Virus record (IMG/VR): IMGVR_UViG_3300011337_000358 | Strand: one strand, 5' to 3' | Length of the DNA stretch: 13,134 bases | Origin: a virus | Taxonomy: Duplodnaviria; Heunggongvirae; Uroviricota; Caudoviricetes | In this document: positions 1,152 through 13,134 of the stretch, in pieces | How the letters are laid out: every line of letters begins with the position of its first letter | Numbering within the stretch: the first letter of the stretch is position 1 | Notes under the pieces: model-generated | Seen by the model: only the letters and a program-made list of their open reading frames with translations | Databases searched by the model: none | What the model was told of the DNA's origin: nothing | Program-made: the position numbers and the translations under genes

Positions 1152-1955
1152 ATGGATCATTATGTAACTTTAGGGGTAAACAAAAATGCTACCCCGGACG
1201 ATATTAAAAAAGCATATCGCAAACTGGCAAGTAAACATCATCCCGATAAAGGGGGCGATACCGCAACGTTTCAACAAATTGAAGAAGCATATCGTATTCT
1301 CAGTGATCCACAACAACGTCAACAATATGACAATCCAATGCCACAAGGCTTTGGGCAGAATTTTAATTTTAACGGTGGACCTGATATCTTCCAAGACTTT
1401 ATGAGTCAGGTGTTTAGGCAACAACATCAGCAACATCAACACCGCCAGAGACAAAAACCAGTATTTAGAACCACAGTAACTGTAACACTTGAACAGTCAT
1501 ACAAAGGTGAAGAGCAAGTTATCAGACTACAAACACCTACACTTACACATGCGGCAAATATTCAAACTCCGAAAGGGGTTCATAATGGTGACCAAGTTAA
1601 ATTTGATAATATCATACAAGAGGCAAGTCTTATTGTAGAGTTTAAAATTATACCACATTTAAAATATGATAGAAATGGAAATGACTTGTTATCAAATCAC
1701 CCGATATCAATATTAGATTTAATTACAGGGACATCGTTTGAGTTTACTACTATTTCAGGTAAAACATTTGAAGTTACAGTTAAACCTAAAACGCAACCAT
1801 TTATACAATTAAAAATTACAGGACAAGGTATGCCCATACATGGAACCAATCAGTTTGGCGACCAAATAATCTTGTTAAAACCCTATATACCTGATATAAT
1901 TGACGAATCAATTATTAACAGCATTCTACAATCTAAAAATAAGGAATCAATATGA
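1152..1955 (+). CDS. dnaJ: DnaJ/CbpA-like class II J-domain co-chaperone, 267 aa
   Basis: J-domain DHYVTLGV...[19 protein letters not shown] (HPD motif), a G/F-rich linker ([11 protein letters not shown]), no CxxCxGxG zinc fingers, and a DnaJ_C-like C-terminus (RNGNDL...ISILDLITG...GQGMP...GDQII). Confidence 0.9.
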
Positions 1956-4213
1956 CAAATTCTCCGGAAATAGAAAACATTATCGAACAATCGATTGAGT
2001 ATGCCAAACAACGTAAACATCAATATGTTACAGTTGAACACTTACTTCTTGCATTAATTAATCATCCATCTTTTACTAAATGCGTAGTTGGCTTTGGCAT
2101 AGATGTTGAGTCAATGTCACACGAAATCACTGGTTATTTAGATAGCTTACACGCTATTGTTTCTACTGAAACTGAAGTAGTTCCACGCAAAACAAGTAGT
2201 TTAGAACGGGTTATGAATCGTTCTGTCACTCAGGTTCTATTCACCGGACGTAGACAAGTTACTACTATTGATTTGTATCTAAGTATTGCAAGTGAAGGTA
2301 ACAGTCACGCACATTATTTCATGCTCAAATACGGTATGCAAAAGAATGAGTTTGTTGCGTACTGGCAAAAACACTATAAGAATGAAGGCGCCGGCAATCT
2401 TACTGAAAATCAAGCAGATGAAATTCTTGAAGAATATACTATTAACCTAAGTGAACTTGCTAGTCAAGGTAAACTTGAACCATTGATTGGTCGTGCAAAA
2501 GAACTTGATGATATTATCAATGTGCTTGCTAAACGATTTAAATCAAATGTATTGATGGTGGGTGATCCGGGTGTAGGTAAAACTGCTATTGCCGAAGGTC
2601 TTGCACAAATGATGCACGACAAACAAGTGCCTGAATTTTTAGAAGGTCATCAACTATATTCATTAGAAGTTGGTTCATTACTTGCCGGCAGCAAATATCG
2701 CGGGGACTTTGAAGAAAAAGTCAAAGCCATTATCGATGCATTGAATACTAAAAAGAAAGCTATTTTATTCATTGACGAAGCACATACTATGCAAGGTGCA
2801 GGTTCAAGCTCCAATGGTAGTGTTGACTTTGCTAATATGATTACACCAGCAATTACTAAAGGCACATTGAAAGTTATTGCTAGTACTACTTGGGAAGAAT
2901 ACTACGAACGTTTTGAGAAGGATCGTGCATTAATGCGTAGATTCTATCGTGTCTCAATTGATGAACCAAGCAACGAATCTACTGTTCGAATTCTTTCTGG
3001 ACTAAGCACACGATTGAATGACTTTCATAGTGTTGAAATTCAAGAAGATGCAATTAAAGCATCAGTTGAAATGTCAACACGATACATTCACGACCGAAAA
3101 AATCCTGATAAAAGTATTGACTTATTGGATGCGGCTTGTGCTAAACAACGTGTTGCAGGTAATAAAGGTGCACATATTACTAAAGACTTAGTGTTTGACC
3201 AAGTAGAGAAGTTTACGGGAGTTCCTGCAGATAAGATGAAGGGTGATAATTTTGACCTTATCAATAACCTTGAGATTAATATCAAAGGTAAATTATATGG
3301 TCAAGATGAAACCGTTCAGCAAGTGTTAGAACGTATCTATGTTAACTTTGCTGGTATCGGTAATGATACTAAACCAACAGGTAGTTTCTTGTTTTTAGGC
3401 CCAACAGGTACAGGTAAAACAGAATTGGCTAAGTTGTTAAGTAAGAACCTTGACATGCCATTGCTCAAATATGATATGAGTGAATACGGAGAAAAACATT
3501 CAGTATCTAGTTTGATCGGTCCGCCCCCTGGTTATGTTGGCTTCGGTGACAGTCAAGTCGGTGGTGGCCGTTTAATCAACGACTTAAGTAAGAACCCACA
3601 TGCTATCATGTTGTTTGATGAAGTTGAAAAAGCACACCCTGATATATTTAACATCTTCTTACAGATGTTAGACGAAGGTACTATTACAGGAAGTAATGGT
3701 AAGAAGGTTAACTGTAAGAATGCTATTATCATTATGACTAGTAACTTAGGTAGTGCCGATGGTGAGCGCAATAACATTGGTTTTGGATCACAAGACAAGC
3801 AAGGAGAAGATGATAAAGCATTGAAAGAATTCTTTAAGCCAGAATTCAGAAATCGTGTTGATTTGATTTGCAAGTTTAACAAACTTGATAGCTTGGCTAT
3901 TAAGAAAATTGTTATTAAGTTTACTGAAGATTTGAAAAAATCATTAATTGAAAAACACAATATCAATTTAGTATTGACAGAACCAGTAGTTGAGTATCTA
4001 GCTGAACAAGGGTATGACAAGAAAATGGGTGCTAGACCACTAGCACGTAAGATTGACGAATTGATTCGTGTACCACTGAGTAAAAAAGTATTGTTTGAAC
4101 GCATTAAAAATGCTACTATTACTGCCAACATTGTTGGTGACACTATTGATTTTGCAGTGACACACAAATTAACAGCTAAGGTGAATGACGATGGCATTAT
4201 TGAGGTCAGTTGA
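1952..4213 (+). CDS. clpA: ATP-dependent Clp protease ATP-binding subunit ClpA, 753 aa
   Basis: Clp N-domain ([13 protein letters not shown]). D1: Walker A GDPGVGKT, pore loop GSKYRGDFE, Walker B IDEAH. D2: Walker [13 protein letters not shown] loop, Walker B FDEVEK. ClpP-docking IGF loop (NNIGFGS). No ClpB coiled-coil M domain. SD AAGGA at 1941-1945; ATGA overlap with dnaJ. Confidence 0.93.
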
Positions 4214-4926: not shown

Positions 4927-4963
4927 ATGATAAATACTCTAATAAAATGGAGTATTTACCATG
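4927..4963 (+). promoter_or_regulatory. T4-like late promoter (TAAATA 4931-4936) inside an SD-sequestering hairpin
   Basis: TAAATACTCTA (4931-4941) pairs with TGGAGTATTTA (4948-4958): 11 bp including one G-U. After one mismatch, ATG 4927-4929 pairs with CAT 4960-4962. The stem covers GGAG (4949-4952) and part of the start codon. Confidence 0.8.
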
Positions 4964-5497: not shown

Positions 5498-6781
5498 ATG
5501 AAACAAATTGTCATTATGCCGGGAGGCTTTCATCCATTTCATGCAGGGCACGCCGCACTATATCAAAGTGCAGTGAAAGCATTTCCGAGTGCAGAAGTAT
5601 ATGTTGCCGCTACCAATGACACAAAAACAAGACCTTTCCCCTTTAATATCAAAGAAAAACTAGCAAAACTTGCTGGCGTAGCTCCTGGACATTTTGTACA
5701 AGTTAAAAGTCCTTTTAAAGCAGAAGAAATCACAAGTCAATATAATCCAGAAGAAGATGTATTAATTTTTGTGCGTAGTGAAAAAGATAGAACAGAACAA
5801 CCTAAACCAGGTGGCACAAAGAAAGATGGTACACCTGCTTACTTTCAACCATGGACCGGTAAGAATTTACAGCCATTCAGTAAACATGCTTACATTGCTT
5901 ACTTACCAACTGTAGAGTTTGGACCTGGAATTCAGAGTGCGACTGAGATTCGCAACATGTGGCCTAAACTAAACGATAAGCGCAAGACTGCATTGGTTAT
6001 GAGTTTATATCCGATAACACAGACAAATCCTAAACTTGCCGCTAACGTTGTTAAGATGTTAGATATAGGCATGGGTGAACAACAAGGTGTGGCGGAGGAT
6101 AAAGAATCCGATCCAGTCACAAGTGCTGTATTAAATTTCTATAAGCCAGTAATAAATGATATCCACAAAGAAAAACTACCAGACTATGTTGACCAAGCTC
6201 GTGGATTGTTACAGAAAACAAATGATCCTGATATTCGTAGTAAATTAGTTGATATCTTTAAAAAGGGTAAAGAAAATCCATATATTCAAGGTGGCATTGT
6301 TACTACCGTTGGTGCAGTATTAGCCGGTGGTATATTAACTACAGCACAGAAGATGGGACTAAGCCCTGCACAAACTAACTTAGCATTACAAGCAATATTG
6401 AATACAGTTATTCCTACAGTTGTTTCACGTATCAATGGTAAAAACTGGAGTGATACAATTAAGTATACATTAGCAAGTGCAGGTATAGGTACAGGTATTG
6501 CCGGCGCAAGTTTAGTAGAAAACGATCCTTGGGGAGATCAAGGTAACTTTGCAGGTGATCGACACGTTGATATTGGTGGAATTTTTACTAGACCTAAATT
6601 AGGTGTAGGTGATATGGTTAAAGTAAATGCAGGTCATTTCAAAGGCATCGGAGAGATATCAGAAATTAAAGGTGACCGTGCAGAAGTTTGGATGGACAGC
6701 TATGCTAAATCCTTCATGTTTGATTTATCTGACCTAGTAAAGTATATACCCGAATCCATAGATTACTTAGAAGAAAAATAA
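5498..6781 (+). CDS. HxGH-superfamily cytidylyltransferase-like protein fused to extra C-terminal modules, 427 aa
   Basis: N-terminal PGGFHPFHAGH (HxGH) and SATEIR (SxT/SxxR) motifs. Then QQGVAE, a 141-aa hydrophobic module ending in LVE, and a KOW-like module. Confidence 0.8.
   Translation: MKQIVIMPGGFHPFHAGHAALYQSAVKAFPSAEVYVAATNDTKTRPFPFNIKEKLAKLAGVAPGHFVQVKSPFKAEEITSQYNPEEDVLIFVRSEKDRTEQPKPGGTKKDGTPAYFQPWTGKNLQPFSKHAYIAYLPTVEFGPGIQSATEIRNMWPKLNDKRKTALVMSLYPITQTNPKLAANVVKMLDIGMGEQQGVAEDKESDPVTSAVLNFYKPVINDIHKEKLPDYVDQARGLLQKTNDPDIRSKLVDIFKKGKENPYIQGGIVTTVGAVLAGGILTTAQKMGLSPAQTNLALQAILNTVIPTVVSRINGKNWSDTIKYTLASAGIGTGIAGASLVENDPWGDQGNFAGDRHVDIGGIFTRPKLGVGDMVKVNAGHFKGIGEISEIKGDRAEVWMDSYAKSFMFDLSDLVKYIPESIDYLEEK
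6083..6099 (+). repeat. QGVAE repeat copy 1 (CAAGGTGTGGCGGAGGA)
   Basis: 15/17 match to CAAGGTGTGGCGGAAGG with the first 14 nt identical. In frame, at the end of the cytidylyltransferase domain. Confidence 0.9.
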
Positions 6782-6801
6782 TTTGACCCCCTCGATAGAG
6801 T

Positions 6802-6828
6802 GTAAATATCTTTATCTTAACAAGAGGA
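6802..6828 (+). promoter_or_regulatory. Late promoter TAAATA (6803-6808) and SD GAGGA (6824-6828)
   Basis: Intergenic TAAATA 25 nt upstream of ATG 6833. A weaker upstream arm (ATTTG 6781-6785, CCTC 6790-6793) could pair with CAAAT and GAGG around the SD. Confidence 0.65.
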
Positions 6829-6832
6829 CCAA

Positions 6833-7729
6833 ATGGCAACTAAGAAAACCAAAAAAACTGAAGAAAAAACTGTACCCGTAGAAAAGGTACAGGAAATCGC
6901 TGAACAAGCGGCACAAGAACAGCAACAAGCCCCGCAACAGGGTCAAGTTCAAGTTAATGTTGACTTTCTAAAAACTACCCGTGTGCACATTGCTATGCCA
7001 TGTTACGGTGGTATGTTGACAGAATCAACATTTATGTCATTCATCAAGTGGGCTAACACAGCCCGTCAACTTGGTATTGACTGGACATTAGAAACAATGG
7101 TTAACGAATCATTGATTAGCCGAGCACGTAATACACTAACTGCAAAGTTCTTGGACATGCCAGACGCTACTCACTTGTTCTTTGTTGACGCTGACATTGG
7201 CTGGGAACCCTGGCATCTATTAGTTCTATTGAACCGTGATGTTGATGTTATTGGTGGACTATATCCAATGAAGACTATGCCTATTAAATGGGTAGTTAAT
7301 GGTTTTGAAGGTGCAGAAGAAGGCACTGATGGCCTACAGGAAGTATCTAAAGCAGGTACCGGTTTCTTACTAATGAAGAAGCATGTATTTGACAAATTGA
7401 AGTCTCATCCTGCAGTTAAGCAGTATAAGAACGACATTGGTTTAGATCCAAGATTTGACCAACACTTAAAGACTTACTTTGATACAGCAGTTCGTCAGAA
7501 TCGTTACTACAGTGAAGACTGGACATTCTGTGAAAACTGGCGTGATATAGGTGGTAAGATTTGGGTTGACAAGCGTGTACTATTACGTCACAGCGGCTCA
7601 TATGTTTTCTGCCAAGAGAACCAAGAACACTTGATGAAGACTATTGGACCCATGTACGTAGACCAATTGACTCAACAAGGTATTAAGCTAGTTGACAAAG
7701 ACGGCAACGAAGCTAAAATCAACAAATAA
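6833..7729 (+). CDS. GT-A fold (GT2-like) glycosyltransferase, 298 aa
   Basis: VHIAMPCYGG, SLISRARN, HLFFVDADIGW (DxD), AGTGFLLMKKHVF, YYSEDWTFC...GGKIWVD...LRH. K/E/Q-rich N-terminal ~40 aa. Confidence 0.75.
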   Translation: MATKKTKKTEEKTVPVEKVQEIAEQAAQEQQQAPQQGQVQVNVDFLKTTRVHIAMPCYGGMLTESTFMSFIKWANTARQLGIDWTLETMVNESLISRARNTLTAKFLDMPDATHLFFVDADIGWEPWHLLVLLNRDVDVIGGLYPMKTMPIKWVVNGFEGAEEGTDGLQEVSKAGTGFLLMKKHVFDKLKSHPAVKQYKNDIGLDPRFDQHLKTYFDTAVRQNRYYSEDWTFCENWRDIGGKIWVDKRVLLRHSGSYVFCQENQEHLMKTIGPMYVDQLTQQGIKLVDKDGNEAKINK

Positions 7730-7757
7730 AACAAAGCCCCGAAAGGGGCTTTTGTTT
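7729..7757. terminator. Rho-independent terminator, probably bidirectional
   Basis: AAGCCCC-GAAA-GGGGCTT (7734-7751) with a GNRA loop, followed by TTGTTT and preceded by an A-rich tract, directly after the stop at 7727-7729. Confidence 0.9.
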
Positions 7758-7772
7758 GATAAATACACTATG
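7758..7772 (+). promoter_or_regulatory. Late promoter ATAAATA directly upstream of ATG (probable leaderless start)
   Basis: GATAAATACACTATG: TAAATA 7760-7765, ATG 7770, no SD between them. Confidence 0.7.
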
Positions 7773-9086
7773 AATTTAAAAGAACTTGATTCCTTTCGCA
7801 TCTCTGACGCTATTAGTTTCCATGACAAATTGAACCCTAAGTTATGGAATAATACACGGTTGCGTCCTGAAGTAAAACAACAACTATTAATAATAGCAGA
7901 AGATTTTTTAGAAGAATTAGGTATTAGTGGATTAGATGTAATAGACATGACTGTATCTGGTTCTAATGCCGCATTTAGTTATACACCCAACAGCGACCTA
8001 GACTTACACATATTAGTTGATATGAGTAAGTTGCCAAATGATGAAGTTTACAGAGAATTATTTACAGCAAAAAAATCATTATACAATGACAGCCACGACA
8101 TAAAAATACACGGGATACCAGTAGAGTTATATGTACAAGACGCCAGAGAACCAGTCGTAAGTCTAGGTGAGTACAGTCTCACAAATGATAACTGGCTTAA
8201 AATCCCATCAAAACGCAGAGCCAATTTTGACCAAACCGCCACCAAGACGAAATATGAAAAGTTATTAACATTAATAGAGCTAGCCCTCAAATCTAGAAAA
8301 TACAGTAAAGTAAGTAACATAGCTAAAACAATTAAAAGATATAGACAATCAGGATTAGATAAGGGTGGCGAGTTTGGTCCTGAAAATCTAGCATACAAAG
8401 CATTAAGAGCACAGGGTTACATTACTAAGTTATACGATTTGCGTGACAAGTTACATAGTGAGAAGTTAACTATTGAAACGATGTACCAGCCCATAAACGA
8501 TGACTATGATCCAAATGGTCCTCCTCCAGGTCCCGAGTTTAAACCAACTATGCCTAAAGGTACTGTTAAAGTAGACGTAAGTGATGTATATGATTGGTAT
8601 AAGTTAGGACAACATATTAGTAATCTTAAGGGTCTAGGTAAGCACGACTTTGGTAGTGGACCTCCTAGTACTATTTTTTCATTTGGTGATGAAGATACAG
8701 AACACCAGTACATTAAAGATTTAGAGAAGACCGGATTAACGACAACTGATATTGATCCAGTTGATCCCAAGCAACCCAAGGGTATGAAGCGTCAGAAAGT
8801 TGATCCTACATATAACGTCAATGAATACAACACTATGCAATTTGCGGCTGAAAAAACACCAGCAACAAACCCATATGGTGGTCTTAAAGATAATCAATTT
8901 CGAGGAAGTATGTCAGAAGCAAGTGGATATATACCTTCAGAAAAACAAAAAAATGATCCTCGTTTTAGTACAGCATTGACAGTGGATGTTCATCCTGATT
9001 CAATCAAAAAGAACGCAAAAGCATTTGGATGGCTCACTAGCAGAGCCGGAATCCCTCCTACAGCGAAAGCAAACGGCAAAATCTGA
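7770..9086 (+). CDS. Pol-beta-superfamily nucleotidyltransferase with C-terminal modules, 438 aa
   Basis: GSNAAFSYTPNSDLDLH (GS...DxD, 7959-8003) plus a third acidic strand, VELYVQD. The track start (7692) would run through the terminator and overlap the GT gene, so 7770 is preferred. Tail segments are separated by TIE (8477), VNE (8825) and MSE (8918). Confidence 0.8.
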   Translation: MNLKELDSFRISDAISFHDKLNPKLWNNTRLRPEVKQQLLIIAEDFLEELGISGLDVIDMTVSGSNAAFSYTPNSDLDLHILVDMSKLPNDEVYRELFTAKKSLYNDSHDIKIHGIPVELYVQDAREPVVSLGEYSLTNDNWLKIPSKRRANFDQTATKTKYEKLLTLIELALKSRKYSKVSNIAKTIKRYRQSGLDKGGEFGPENLAYKALRAQGYITKLYDLRDKLHSEKLTIETMYQPINDDYDPNGPPPGPEFKPTMPKGTVKVDVSDVYDWYKLGQHISNLKGLGKHDFGSGPPSTIFSFGDEDTEHQYIKDLEKTGLTTTDIDPVDPKQPKGMKRQKVDPTYNVNEYNTMQFAAEKTPATNPYGGLKDNQFRGSMSEASGYIPSEKQKNDPRFSTALTVDVHPDSIKKNAKAFGWLTSRAGIPPTAKANGKI

Positions 9087-9092
9087 TGGTAA

Positions 9093-9133
9093 AAAATTCT
9101 CTTTTGACTAAATATAAGTATCAAGGGAATTTT
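9093..9133 (+). promoter_or_regulatory. Late promoter TAAATA (9109-9114) in the loop of an SD-sequestering hairpin
   Basis: AAAATTCTCTT (9093-9103) pairs with AAGGGAATTTT (9123-9133): 11 bp with one G-U, covering the SD AAGGG of ATG 9136. Confidence 0.75.
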
Positions 9134-9135
9134 CT

Positions 9136-9381
9136 ATGCCAATTGCGAATAGCTATAATAATACACCAAACGTAGTTTTAGGTCCTCCAACTAGTTCTCC
9201 ACCTACAGTTGATCCGGGCGCGGCTACAGGAACTAACCCAATAGTTAGAAGACCAACTCCTACAATATCATCTAATACTGAAGTAGCAAGTAATGCTATT
9301 CCTGAAGCAGTTCCTACTCCGACTGTTAATCTTCCCACCGCAACTAACACAACAATATTGAAGTTGTGGAAAACAGCATAA
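9136..9381 (+). CDS. Small Pro/Thr-rich hypothetical protein, 81 aa
   Basis: Has its own late promoter and SD and fills the intergenic gap. Low-complexity P/T/N/V sequence. Confidence 0.65.
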   Translation: MPIANSYNNTPNVVLGPPTSSPPTVDPGAATGTNPIVRRPTPTISSNTEVASNAIPEAVPTPTVNLPTATNTTILKLWKTA

Positions 9382-9395
9382 TAAACTAACAAGTT

Positions 9396-9457
9396 TGGTG
9401 GAATTCCTTGTCTATATAGATTTTTGATAAATACTATATAATATTGGAATTCCATCA
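9396..9457 (+). promoter_or_regulatory. Late promoter TAAATA (9428-9433) inside a long RBS-sequestering hairpin
   Basis: TGGTGGAATTCC (9396-9407) pairs with GGAATTCCATCA (9446-9457): 12 bp with one G-U. An inner stem pairs TATATAG (9413-9419) with CTATATA (9434-9440). It covers the RBS and the A of ATG 9457. Confidence 0.75.
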
Positions 9458-10236
9458 TGCGTTTTACAGAAATATCAGAATCTACAACATCAGGCTCAGT
9501 ATCTACTGTAGCAATGCCACTAGGCAAAACTCAAACACGTACTCAAGTATCTGGTTTAGAACCCGTGAAAAAAGTAATGGGCGGCACTGCTAAGAAAAAA
9601 GGTCCATATGGAAATAGTCTTACTGAAGGTGCTATGAAGCAACTTTCAATGGATCTTAAAGAGTTAAAAGACGAAGAATTCAAAAAGAAATATAATATGA
9701 CTAAGCAGGAAGCCCGTACTGAATTATCTGCAAAGCCTGAACCCATCAAAGAAGCAGAACTATCTGAAGATGATATCATATTAGTTCCAGGACAGGGACG
9801 CAAAATGAAAACTGGATTTGTACCGCATGGTCAAAGTCGTGTAGACCATGAAGTAGAAATGGCACGTAGTGATTTATTCAGTGCGGCAAAGAACGCTAAA
9901 CAAGTATATGAAATGATTCATAGTGTATCTGAAGATGAGGGTCTTGAGGGCTGGGTACAAGAAAAGATTATCAAAGCCAACGACTACCTAAATACAGTAC
10001 GTGAATACTTAGAAGGTAAACAAATTCAACAAGAAGCTAGTAGTCTTACATATGAAGGTAAGATTGACTTTGCCAAAAAGATACAAAAGAATGTAGATAA
10101 GAGTAACAAAGCAGTAGTAAAGACTAGAAAAGAAGTTGGTGCAAGAATTGCTGATATTGGTGCAGGCGGCAAAGAACACAATGTTAAAACTGACAAAGCG
10201 TGGGACGATGCACAAAAAGCAAAGAAAGCAAAATAA
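9457..10236 (+). CDS. Probable internal head / prohead-core-like protein, 259 aa
   Basis: Late promoter; charged, helical sequence; N-terminus MRFTEISE; several hydrophobic-X-E junctions (LTE-G, IKE-A, LSE-D, YLE-G, TYE-G). The function is inferred. Confidence 0.6.
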   Translation: MRFTEISESTTSGSVSTVAMPLGKTQTRTQVSGLEPVKKVMGGTAKKKGPYGNSLTEGAMKQLSMDLKELKDEEFKKKYNMTKQEARTELSAKPEPIKEAELSEDDIILVPGQGRKMKTGFVPHGQSRVDHEVEMARSDLFSAAKNAKQVYEMIHSVSEDEGLEGWVQEKIIKANDYLNTVREYLEGKQIQQEASSLTYEGKIDFAKKIQKNVDKSNKAVVKTRKEVGARIADIGAGGKEHNVKTDKAWDDAQKAKKAK

Positions 10237-10237
10237 A

Positions 10238-13134
10238 ATGAGCAATATTCTACAAGGCTTAAACGAAACACAAAAACATGACGGTGTATTCTTGTTAACA
10301 GAATCTCGTACATACAAGTTATGGGAGAGTGCTGGACAAAAGATTAGTGAAGCACAACTAACTGCCGATCAGATTAATCAAATCTTTAAACAAGTTGAAC
10401 AAGGTGCTACTGCCGCAGGTGGTAATCGTACAATGCTCGGTAAAGGTAAAGACGCAGCCGGCGCAGTAAAGCAAGCATATGATGATTTGGTGAGTAAAGC
10501 ACAGAACTCAGGACCTATTAAAGGTGTTGATGCGATGTACGACAAAGCCGCCGAAAAATTAAAACAAGCAACTGGTGGCGATCAGGGTGTAATGAAATAT
10601 GTACAGAAATATCGTGACTTTGCTAAAGAACACCCAGTAGCACAAGGTTTAATATATTCAGCATTAATTGCAGCCGCTGGTATCAGTGGTGCAGGTATTG
10701 GTGGTGCAGCCGCACTAGGTTTGTTTAAGATGGTAGACAAATTGTTACAGGGTGAGAAGTTTAGTACTGCTGTAGGTAAAGGCGTAACTACTGGTGCAAT
10801 GGCTTATGGTGCAAGTAAAGTTGGTGATCTTTTCAAAGGTTCACCGCAAGGCGCACCTACTACTGCTGGATCAGACGCTACCGCAGGTGCGGCACAAGAT
10901 ACATTGTCTGCGACTAGACAAGCAGTGGAAAAAGAAGCTATGGATGCCATTAAGTCTAGAATTGCCAATGGAGAAATAGCACCCGGCGATCAAGGTGCCA
11001 TACGAGATTTGGCATACAAAATGCTAGATGGATCAGGTATGCCGCCGCAGTCTATAGAAACTTCTGTAGAAAAATTAATAACACGATCTATGGGTGATGT
11101 AGGAACTAGCGCAACTAATACAGTGTCCGGCACATTGTCAGGTGTTACCGGAGAACAGATGGCTAGTCATCCTGCATACCAAGCAATGATTCAAAAGTTT
11201 GGCAATACACCCGGCGCTCGTCAGGCGGCTATGGCTGCTGCCAAGTCAGCAATTCTTAAGGGACAAGTCAATGAAAGTATCAATTTATCAGAATCTCAAA
11301 TCTTTCTATTGATAGGTAAGATTGTTGAACGTCAACGTAAACTTGACGAAGGCATCATGGATACACTTAAAGGCGCCGCAGGTAAAGCCGCCGATTGGGC
11401 ACAAACTAAAGGAACTAATTTAACAACTAAAGTTACTGCTGACAAATTATTACAAGCGTGGAAGAAAGCTGGTAGTCCAACAGATAGTTTAGATGTTGCA
11501 AGCATTATTCAAAAAGCTGGTGTACCATCTGATTCAATCAAACAAGTATACACTACAATGCAAATACCTTTTGCAGGTGAAAAAGGTGCAGGTGCGAGTA
11601 CAAAACGTAATATAGATGTTGATCCATCAAGTGTTGCACCAGCCGCTCCAACAAGTACACCCACTGCTTCTGCACCGTCAGCTACAGCAAATGCGCCGGC
11701 GGCAGATGCATCACAGCCTGCTACGGCCGCAACTGGCTCTTTAGCACAAGCACAAGAACTCATTGCAAAATTAGATCCAGAAACTAAAACAAAACTTATA
11801 TCAACATTGAAACAAGAGTTGAGTGTAGCTGAAAGTCGAATCAATGAATTATCTAATGAAAAATTAGGACAATACAAAAAAGCCGCAAGTGCTGACGCTA
11901 CTGCCGCTGACAAAGCAGGTGACTATAAGCGTGGTGATAAACGTTTCAGTGGTATTGTTCGTGCAACTAACAAACAGTTTGCTAATGATACTAAAAAACA
12001 TGGTCAGCAAGGTGTGGCGGAAGGCTTAGAGCAATCATTATCGTCAATGGTAAGACAAGATCAGACTGAGCGGAATGAGTATGCAACCTTTGTAAAATCA
12101 CAAGCAGGTGGTGATTGGTCCAAAGGGGCTAAAATGTATGCTCAACTCAAAAAAAGACCCATCGATGATATATTTGGTGATGCAATAAGATTAAACCAGT
12201 TTATGAAAATGAAGTTTGATTTTGATAAATTTACCAATGAAGATTGGGACAATTATTGGTTGTTAGCACAGCATTGTGATAATAATCGTGACTTTCAAAA
12301 GAATGCTTTATCAATAATTAAAAAATATCAAGGTACAGATCATTCGCACTACAAATATCTATACGATAGAATCAGTATGGGTCTAACTGGTAAACAGAAA
12401 TACGGAACACAGAATATTAAAGAGCATGGCGTGGCAGAAGGCTTCCCTCATGATGTTGACCATATGCCGGGTCCTGTGATTCGCAATGCTGATATGACTA
12501 CAGATAATGTCAAGACCAAAGACAAAGCAGAATGGGACAGAGCCACTGATAGCATCAACGCACGGGTGTTTGATGATATGAGTGAATTTCGCACTGACAA
12601 CAACGGTGAAACAGTTGTCGGTGATAGCGCAGTTTGGGCCAAGTGGGACAATGCTACACAAACAGGTTGGTTCAATGCCAAAGGTCGCCCATTAAAGCCT
12701 TGGCCTGTTAAAGAGCAAGGTGTGGCGGAAGGTGATGGGCCAAGATATATTGATAACATAATGAACCAGTATAAGGCAGGCTTGCCTGGCCAAAACCCGG
12801 CGGCCTTATCTAAACCAACTAGAGCAGTTGATGCCAGAGGTCGCACACAAGAACAATGGGCACAATTAGTTAGGAGCAAGTTTCCGGGTGCTAAAATTAC
12901 ACAGGCTAAAATGATTGACGGGCCTATGCAAGCAACCTTACCTGATGGTAGAAAACTTGGATGGAAAAAAGTTGAACAAATTGATGAAATTATTGATCCT
13001 AGCACAAAGATGGCATGGGCATTACGCCACATCGCCGGGTTCCTTACTAGATTATTTCCTTACGCAGTGGGCGCCGGAACTTTGTGGGCAGCCAGTGGAC
13101 TGTTGGCCCCACTAGTGGCTGCATCCGGTGGAGT
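10238..13134 (+). CDS. Large modular polyprotein, probable internal head protein (at least 965 aa, 3'-truncated, not in ORF track)
   Basis: I translated it by hand from ATG 10238 (after TAA 10234-10236) and found no stop to the window end. It begins MSNILQGLNE and contains three in-frame GVAEG repeats, a DUF6624-like module, an A/P/T linker and hydrophobic segments. Confidence 0.88.
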   Translation, partial: MSNILQGLNETQKHDGVFLLTESRTYKLWESAGQKISEAQLTADQINQIFKQVEQGATAAGGNRTMLGKGKDAAGAVKQAYDDLVSKAQNSGPIKGVDAMYDKAAEKLKQATGGDQGVMKYVQKYRDFAKEHPVAQGLIYSALIAAAGISGAGIGGAAALGLFKMVDKLLQGEKFSTAVGKGVTTGAMAYGASKVGDLFKGSPQGAPTTAGSDATAGAAQDTLSATRQAVEKEAMDAIKSRIANGEIAPGDQGAIRDLAYKMLDGSGMPPQSIETSVEKLITRSMGDVGTSATNTVSGTLSGVTGEQMASHPAYQAMIQKFGNTPGARQAAMAAAKSAILKGQVNESINLSESQIFLLIGKIVERQRKLDEGIMDTLKGAAGKAADWAQTKGTNLTTKVTADKLLQAWKKAGSPTDSLDVASIIQKAGVPSDSIKQVYTTMQIPFAGEKGAGASTKRNIDVDPSSVAPAAPTSTPTASAPSATANAPAADASQPATAATGSLAQAQELIAKLDPETKTKLISTLKQELSVAESRINELSNEKLGQYKKAASADATAADKAGDYKRGDKRFSGIVRATNKQFANDTKKHGQQGVAEGLEQSLSSMVRQDQTERNEYATFVKSQAGGDWSKGAKMYAQLKKRPIDDIFGDAIRLNQFMKMKFDFDKFTNEDWDNYWLLAQHCDNNRDFQKNALSIIKKYQGTDHSHYKYLYDRISMGLTGKQKYGTQNIKEHGVAEGFPHDVDHMPGPVIRNADMTTDNVKTKDKAEWDRATDSINARVFDDMSEFRTDNNGETVVGDSAVWAKWDNATQTGWFNAKGRPLKPWPVKEQGVAEGDGPRYIDNIMNQYKAGLPGQNPAALSKPTRAVDARGRTQEQWAQLVRSKFPGAKITQAKMIDGPMQATLPDGRKLGWKKVEQIDEIIDPSTKMAWALRHIAGFLTRLFPYAVGAGTLWAASGLLAPLVAASGG
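12008..12024 (+). repeat. QGVAEG repeat copy 2 (CAAGGTGTGGCGGAAGG)
   Basis: 17/17 identical to copy 4; in frame. Confidence 0.95.
12026..12424 (+). other. DUF6624-like domain cassette inside the polyprotein
   Basis: MVRQDQTER...WLLAQHCDNNRDFQKNAL...YKYLYDRISM...KQKYGTQ matches the recalled DUF6624 pattern (M...DQ..R...WLL.QHAD....FQ...L...YAYL.DR......Q.YGTQ). It is bounded by repeat copies 2 and 3. Confidence 0.7.
12417..12441 (+). repeat. GVAEG repeat copy 3, degenerate (TTAAAGAGCATGGCGTGGCAGAAGG)
   Basis: 14/17 match in the core (12425-12441). It shares the upstream TTAAAGAGCA with copy 4 and encodes IKEHGVAEG. Confidence 0.88.
12708..12732 (+). repeat. QGVAEG repeat copy 4 (TTAAAGAGCAAGGTGTGGCGGAAGG)
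   Basis: 17/17 core at 12716-12732; encodes VKEQGVAEG; in frame. Confidence 0.95.

Follow-up and report, generated by a model that had tools for sequence, protein, structure and literature searches.

Introduction

In bacteriophage T4, leaders of 10 residues, the capsid-targeting sequences (CTS), direct cargo proteins into the head, where the gp21 protease cleaves after L/I-X-E (PMC9026906); amongst the internal proteins of T4 the cargo is diverse and unrelated, and the leader alone is conserved (PMC3012670, PMC9026906). The polyvalent proteins of phages are defined by their domain repertoire (MuF, ART, LPD, MPTase and others) and by embedded autopeptidases (PMC5512222), while in the PeSL cassettes of T4-type phages short conserved flanks were proposed to allow modules to be shuffled by homologous recombination (Arbiol et al., 2010; PMC2839356). 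Here we describe a 17-nucleotide sequence, CAAGGTGTGGCGGAAGG, that recurs in frame at the boundaries between protein modules in a 13,134-nucleotide stretch of a virus of the Caudoviricetes (IMG/VR record IMGVR_UViG_3300011337_000358), a stretch referred to below as the window. We favour, with moderate confidence, a reading at two levels, in which this joint would serve both as a recombination joint and as a prohead-protease site in cargo polyproteins. By analogy, such a system would work like the internal-protein logic of T4 (leader plus gp21 sites) combined with recombination joints of the PeSL type.

The locus resembles T4 IPI-III and Alt in its leaders, M-(K/R)-x-x-E-hydrophobic-x-x-E ending in hydrophobic-x-Glu, and some of its relatives encode a Peptidase_S77 and a Gp23-type capsid protein. 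Unlike the T4 internal proteins, which are encoded by single-module genes, many cargo modules, known from sequence alone, share one open reading frame (ORF) here, and one preferred six-residue internal site, QGVAEG, is conserved as DNA across at least 120 contigs. With the polyvalent proteins (Iyer, Burroughs, Anand, de Souza and Aravind, 2017; PMC5512222) the locus shares large mosaic multi-domain proteins, for which head packaging and delivery together with the DNA are predicted, and a fast re-assortment of domains. None of the domains of the polyvalent repertoire reaches the Pfam thresholds here, so that the proteins of the two motif-bearing genes of the window (gene 1 and gene 2, Table 1) fall outside that repertoire; Pfam yields only CTP_transf_like, a weak KOW match, GP88, DUF6321 and weak DUF5872/DUF2076 matches, and a Protein Atlas match to LPD39 (0.81) lies below the usable score. 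An earlier, preliminary description of the window had presented the polyvalent proteins as involving no shared junction repeat, which agrees with the text of the paper, where the word 'linker' occurs 0 times (PMC5512222).

Shuffling at short conserved sites without a dedicated recombinase is common to the PeSL cassettes and the present locus. The PeSL, however, is an intergenic early promoter with a terminator stem-loop, about 50 bp long, that moves whole ORFs, whereas the joint described here is about 21 nt long, coding and in frame, and moves protein domains; since all QGVAEG copies are coding and in frame, membership of the PeSL family is ruled out. Swappable units delimited by a repeated site also recall integron cassette arrays, and the preliminary description had likened the locus to such an array. 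That likeness does not extend to the machinery: a search for the tyrosine recombinase family PF00589 found no member in the record or in four near-complete relatives, whilst a control search matched 14 of 14 genomes, and an integron-like mechanism is rejected on this ground. An attC-type site is ruled out as well, as the 17-mer is not palindromic or otherwise self-complementary, its conservation extends over at most about 21 nt, and the units are in-frame domains and not separate ORFs. In polymorphic toxins, a short motif conserved as peptide or DNA (VENN in CdiA, PxxxxDPxGL in Rhs proteins) parts a constant region from swappable C-terminal modules, and the Rhs motif is also a proteolytic site; these toxins have one junction per protein, undergo autoproteolysis, are served by bacterial secretion systems and are not known to form arrays. 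In the literature we found no published description of a QGVAEG joint or of protease-processed jumbo-phage polyproteins.

Results and discussion

A repeated sequence in frame at module boundaries

A pattern search with mismatches allowed finds exactly four matches to the 17-mer in the window, all on the plus strand (J0 to J3, Table 1), where shuffled sequences lead one to expect 0.01 and none of 200 shuffles reaches four. All four lie in the sense frame of long ORFs, the copy at 6083 in gene 1 and the other three in gene 2, which continues beyond the last base of the window; within gene 2 the copies are 417 and 291 nt apart, multiples of 3 that preserve the frame, and each copy falls where similarity to other contigs begins or ends. 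The preliminary description had given four in-frame copies at these positions, with frame-preserving spacings and at junctions between protein segments, and on all of these points it is borne out. Its statement that every copy is on the plus strand holds inside the window but not for the whole 78,317-bp IMG/VR record (G000), of which the window forms bases 14024-27157: two further copies, at 58671 and 59603, are on the minus strand and read EGVAEG and QGVAEG, each in the sense direction of its minus-strand gene (593 and 230 aa). Counted over the record, as had been proposed, there are six copies, and six of six are in sense and in frame.

The record is 22% complete according to CheckV, from which a full genome size of about 350 kb follows, and public runs containing the stretch are river and freshwater metagenomes from 8 studies. 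Between window and record there are 12 single-base differences (50, 314, 325, 2163, 2844, 2909, 6081, 11006, 11028, 11036, 11049 and 12427), amongst which 6081 and 12427 touch or adjoin junction copies; at both positions the public contigs side with the record. Both the record and the public runs have an A at 12427, so that J2 is really CAAGGCGTGGCAGAAGG and reads QGVAEG.

In the record's codon usage GTG makes up 11% of the Val codons and GCG 7% of the Ala codons, and under this usage the canonical spelling of QGVAE has a probability of P = 0.0026, three of its five codons being the commonest ones. GTG is found in all six copies of the record and GCG in five of them.

Modules are exchanged in frame at the joint

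When the motif proteins of the record were compared by tblastn with 1.8 Mb of related loci, 61 of the 192 internal alignment termini fell within 8 aa of the motif, against 12 expected (p = 6e-27). Amongst 228 non-redundant contexts, the junction pairs that are similar up to the joint comprise 2 that are alike on both sides and 119 that are alike on one side only, while the corresponding numbers are 99 and 82 for control points set 25 aa into the modules. Module changes in relatives thus break at the repeat, as the preliminary description had anticipated.

Individual contigs illustrate the exchange. Contig L009 is collinear with window positions 6760-8818 at 76.5% identity and then with 12013-12268 at 95.3%, the switch falling inside the motif (..AAT GTG|GCG GAA GGT..). 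The homologue of the 7770-9086 gene is fused there in frame to module M1 of gene 2, at a point that matches window position 8818 (..YNV|NE..), and the jump in identity from 76.5% to 95.3% suggests that the cassette was transferred more recently. Contig L008 shares only M1 together with both of its joints, one of them identical to J3 over 26 nt. Homology to both contigs begins at J1, and Logan contigs end at 12012 and 12023. In the public runs, which were compared as assembled contigs only, contigs of run X5 carry module M2 in another context, their sequence departing from the window upstream of 12428 and downstream of 12731, and other contigs end at joints and continue into other sequence, including one in which the KOW-like module of gene 1 comes directly after a QGVAEG joint.

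We are highly confident that modules are swapped in frame between related phages at a DNA-conserved joint. The recombination joint of the preliminary description is strongly supported by the gain, loss and re-pairing of modules in frame exactly at the repeat and by a conservation of the DNA beyond what the peptide needs.

The joint as a candidate prohead-protease site

The homologues of the DUF6321 module, which follows one of the minus-strand joints, carry a hydrophobic-x-E tripeptide 1-5 aa before the module in 28 of 28 non-redundant cases, even as the preceding sequences vary (QGVAE, GMAE, FITE, LLNE, SVEE and others). Four of them are stand-alone genes, which start with MRATEFITE, MRAYEFIDE, MRIHELLSE and MKSFKAFITE. 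In the M1 family, hydrophobic-x-E is found at 41 of 59 internal boundaries and in 29 of 50 short leaders, compared with a background of 11%; the leaders include MRATEFITE, MRACEFILE, MKLHELFE and MKTFKQFLLE, and the T4 CTS set beside them is MKTYQEFIAE. With the same tripeptide at internal boundaries and in stand-alone leaders, the joint holds the exact place that the CTS cleavage site has in the single-module versions. Proteins of the record with CTS-like leaders start with MRFTEISE (the gene at 9457), MSNILQGLNE (gene 2), MRITEILTE, MNFKELFE and MRANEFAVDE. Of the eight large relatives searched, four (G002, G003, G006 and G008) encode both a Peptidase_S77 and a Gp23-type capsid protein; in G002 and G003 the two adjoin the scaffold gene, and the capsid propeptide ends in L-x-E, followed by S/A.

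On the strength of these sequences and of the analogy with T4, cleavage of the polyproteins by a prohead protease and their delivery with the DNA is plausible, and the balance of the evidence leans that way. When the S77 protease of G003 was modelled in complex with 40 aa from G003 that include QGVAEG, the score was 0.00, which carries no weight in either direction.

Several observations weigh against this assignment. Gene 1 begins without a CTS-like leader, and neither a protease gene nor a major capsid gene is found on the 78-kb fragment. S77 has no match in G001 and G007, which are near-complete and carry the motif; the capsid gene of G001 is cut off by the contig end. In the relatives, capsid and scaffold proteins use plain L-x-E and not QGVAEG, and QGVAEG is far more specific than gp21 requires, so that the conserved Q, G and G' are not explained by the protease alone. 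The VAE/G cut site put forward in the preliminary description thus has indirect support, from the hydrophobic-x-Glu boundaries, from the T4-CTS-like leaders of stand-alone homologues and from the Peptidase_S77 of relatives. As a general site of head proteins QGVAEG is not supported, since in G001, a complete relative of 354 kb, it is confined to two adjacent genes.

The head genes of G007 (342,865 bp, rated 99% complete) form a separate observation. No Gp23-type capsid gene, S77 or S78 was detected in this motif-bearing genome, and searches with Peptidase_S78 and with the G003 capsid protein returned nothing in G007, G009 and G010. Either the contig lacks the head module of G007, or this module belongs to a different type.

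A first alternative regards the joint as a recombination site and flexible hinge only, with polyproteins that act uncut in the manner of the N4 vRNAP-type polyvalent proteins and with hydrophobic-x-E as merely a favourable domain end. Every result at the DNA level fits this equally well, and some polyvalent proteins are packaged unprocessed (PMC5512222), but a hinge leaves unexplained why Glu is near-invariant and P3 hydrophobic at very different boundaries (28 of 28; 69% vs 11%), and it offers no account of stand-alone leaders of 9-10 aa that end in the same tripeptide and resemble the T4 CTS. We consider it unlikely. It is less probable again, and in our judgement distinctly improbable, that the site is cut by some other enzyme, be it a dedicated phage protease, a host protease or one acting after injection: the specificity of QGVAEG beyond L/I-X-E, its confinement to the polyprotein genes and the lack of an S77 match in G007 speak for such an enzyme, yet no other protease candidate is seen in the window, the leaders match the gp21/CTS system, and half of the large relatives searched (4/8) encode S77.

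Conservation of the joint as DNA

At least 120 other viral contigs contain the exact 17-mer. Amongst the matches listed, 102 of the 103 exact copies give the reading QGVAEG within a long ORF, and their flanks are highly varied. The sole exception amongst the 103 is the minus-strand match at 18-34 of L112 (IMGVR_UViG_3300042278_000550), where 16 aa are open and another frame is open for 280 aa; this copy may belong to a frameshifted gene or be a chance match. In a control with bacterial genomes the 17-mer is single-copy, comes mostly from high-GC taxa, and is in the QGVAEG frame in only 42 of 120 cases.

Loci collected by protein similarity, fetched via another domain, spell 17 of 30 non-redundant GVAE joints as GGTGTGGCGGAA. 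The remainder are synonymous variants, which argues that the peptide is under selection as well. Amongst the loci found by DNA, the canonical spelling appears in 79 of 121 extra junctions. Conservation extends over about 21 nt (RAG CAA GGT GTG GCG GAA GGC), includes the wobble bases -4 and +14 against codon bias, and stops abruptly beyond this core. 'Empty' joints with only 2-8 residues before the stop exist, and overlapping doublets QGVAEGVAE occur; neither makes sense for a plain linker.

In five pairs of diverged joints in orthologous contexts, a small sample from one clade, codons are identical at 13 of 24 positions in the joint and at 162 of 250 in the flanks. From this drift of wobble bases in stable contexts we infer that the canonical spelling stays frequent because new joints arise from canonical ones, and not through selection on each copy. 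With no tyrosine recombinase found in the record or in four near-complete relatives, the most likely route is general recombination over short stretches of identity, and such identity-driven recombination probably explains why the joint is conserved as DNA. Two points count on the other side: a length of 17-21 bp is short for RecA/UvsX-type exchange, and recombination intermediates were not observed.

The nucleotide conservation might instead reflect an RNA or DNA signal (a rare-codon pause, a Shine-Dalgarno-like pause, a Chi-like hotspot or a protein-binding site), with shuffling as its by-product. Rare GTG and GCG codons at domain boundaries and the partly Shine-Dalgarno-like AAGGTG would suit a signal, but three codons out of five are those used most often, the motif is not followed by a start codon, the codons at non-canonical joints are unrelated, and the wobble bases in stable contexts drift like the flanks, which is evidence against an RNA or translational signal in particular; we regard the idea as very improbable. 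The variant with a Chi-like or other sub-word hotspot was dropped, as in the sense frame neither the 7-mers nor the 8-mers of the motif show enrichment away from the joints. All data being metagenomic, chance or an assembly or adapter artefact might be suspected, but with 0.01 matches expected, 102 of 103 listed copies in frame, the stretch present in runs of 8 studies and a bacterial control that behaves differently, this possibility is negligible, and the frame counts already contradict it.

A model for the joint and its significance

In the two-level model, gene 1, gene 2 and the two motif-bearing minus-strand genes would encode 'beads-on-a-string' cargo polyproteins of a river phage of about 350 kb, whose closest large relatives have T4-type head genes. 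At the DNA level, which the results largely bear out, the core of about 21 nt would act as a common patch of identity at which general recombination swaps whole modules in frame, within genes, between genes and between phages. Canonical copies would be common because new joints arise from canonical joints, while copies that stay in one context would drift at their wobble bases. As protein, V-A-E before G would be one spelling of the hydrophobic-x-Glu site of a gp21-type (Peptidase_S77) prohead protease. The T4-CTS-like leader would bring the polyprotein into the prohead, where it would be cut into separate small proteins, and these would leave the head with the DNA, by analogy with the T4 internal proteins and Alt.

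A wider extension of the model, which we put forward tentatively and with rather less than even confidence, is that the joint defines a pan-phage pool of in-frame protein cassettes, an 'integron without integrase', the combinations of which would be packaged via the leader and cut. Modules flanked by canonical joints could then pass between genes and between distant phages by short-homology exchange, and new combinations would be packaged and cut automatically, because the joint also spells the head-protease site. In such a pool the canonical joints would be the members that reproduce, and joints that have drifted would be fossils.

If the two-level model is true, large environmental phages diversify their DNA-delivered proteins through in-frame cassette exchange at a dual-purpose site and not through gene-by-gene turnover, and the delivered proteins would, by analogy with T4 IPI, likely be host-takeover and anti-defence factors. 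The joint also offers a testable case of a coding sequence that is kept uniform by recombination and not by selection on its product. The 17-mer is a simple sequence handle with which hundreds of cargo modules can be catalogued in metagenomes, the DUF6624-like M1 (354 clusters) being an example. Finally, the arrangement suggests a natural design rule by which a leader and cleavable joints load several proteins into phage heads.

Genes and modules of the window

Table 1. Position, strand and description of the joints, genes, modules and promoter-like motif (window coordinates).
Feature	Position	Strand	Description
Gene 1	5498..6781	+	427 aa; three modules; no CTS-like leader
Gene 1 module 1	5498-6082	+	HxGH nucleotidyltransferase-like; Pfam CTP_transf_like; weak NCBIfam/PDB matches of PPAT/CCT type
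Joint J0	6083..6099	+	CAAGGTGTGGCGGAGGA; 2 mismatches; QGVAED; parts nucleotidyltransferase from hydrophobic module
Gene 1 module 2	6101-6523	+	Gly/Ala-rich hydrophobic
Gene 1 module 3	6524-6778	+	Weakly KOW-like
Neighbour gene	7770..9086	+	N-terminus phrog_36119 nucleotidyltransferase-like
ATAAATA	9427..9433	+	T4 late promoter-like; 24 nt before ATG 9457
Gene for 259-aa modular protein	9457..10236	+	Leader MRFTEISE-S; directly upstream of gene 2; no QGVAEG copy
Gene 2	10238..13134 (runs off window end)	+	1283 aa in full record
55-aa module	11840..12001	+	phrog_26930; widely conserved
Joint J1	12008..12024	+	Exact 17-mer; QGVAEG
Module M1	12026..12424	+	133 aa; autonomous all-alpha domain
Joint J2	12425..12441	+	CATGGCGTGGCAGAAGG in window, 3 mismatches, HGVAEG; CAA.. 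and QGVAEG in record and public runs
Module M2	12443..12715	+	91 aa
Joint J3	12716..12732	+	Exact 17-mer; QGVAEG
Start of gene 2 C-terminal part	12734..13134	+	Gly/Ala-rich hydrophobic stretch, with small Cys-rich and basic modules in record; weak DUF5872 match

The tblastn matches to gene 1 end at aa 185-193 and start at 196-207, with a second start at 342; contig ends and joints lie at 6524, too. Gene 2 starts with MSNILQGLNE-T at 10238 and not with the TTG at 10136, the homologue in contig L153 aligning from residue 1. Its order is a long N-terminal part, the 55-aa module, J1, M1, J2, M2 and J3, after which come a hydrophobic stretch and then small modules that are Cys-rich or basic. In other phages a stop, QGVAEG or a different hydrophobic-x-E joint comes after the phrog_26930 module. 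A tblastn search of gene 2 against cultured phages gave a single match, in which the 55-aa module aligned with Synechococcus phage BUCT-ZZ01, a phage that lacks GVAE.

Module M1, with a joint on either side, is a genuine autonomous domain. When 1.84 billion representatives were scanned in full with HMMER, 354 cluster representatives gave matches that coincide almost exactly with residues 2-131, and these matches occupy many positions in proteins of 53-2552 aa. The AlphaFold2 model is a compact six-helix domain (pLDDT 96, pTM 0.88), and the family is distantly related to DUF6624, which matches 7 of 50 members. With this model Foldseek returned only weak helical-repeat matches or uncharacterised proteins from the PDB and the AFDB clusters. 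Protein Atlas searches with M1 and M2 gave no usable match, and for M2 the search found no recognisable family.

Further ATAAATA motifs lie at 4930 and 7759, and the three copies of the window are 11-31 nt upstream of ATGs. In the record 12 of 20 forward copies stand 8-31 nt before an ATG, with an overall count at chance level. As evidence for late promoters the motif is suggestive only, a weakness that also detracts from the two-level model, and the 'late genes' of the preliminary description rest on nothing other than these upstream motifs.

On the minus strand of the record, four consecutive genes at 56087-59961 have the CTS-like leaders MRITEILTE, MNFKELFE, MRDLIQLLED and MRANEFAVDE; two of the four carry QGVAEG joints, before a GP88 (PF17338) module and a DUF6321 module. 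A second recurrent joint-like peptide, EGM(M/T)EEQLDE(L/I)N(C)W, precedes small Cys-rich modules and is found at residues ~1126-1140 of gene 2 (counted on a 1317-aa ORF) and ~43-56 of the 593-aa gene. Linkers of the NEFAP type recur in other contigs.

Eight small public runs under one organism name (X5-X12, two studies) contain 87-95% of the words of the stretch; they may be cultures or enrichments that hold the phage, and hence a clue to its host. Near the start of the window, a DnaJ-type co-chaperone gene (1152-1955; J domain and DnaJ_C) adjoins a gene for a ClpA/ClpB-type double-AAA+ unfoldase with a Clp_N domain (1952-4213). The protein encoded at 34-672 combines a Gly/Ser-rich low-complexity N-terminal half with a C-terminal GTA_holin_3TM / phrog_3427 holin-like domain.

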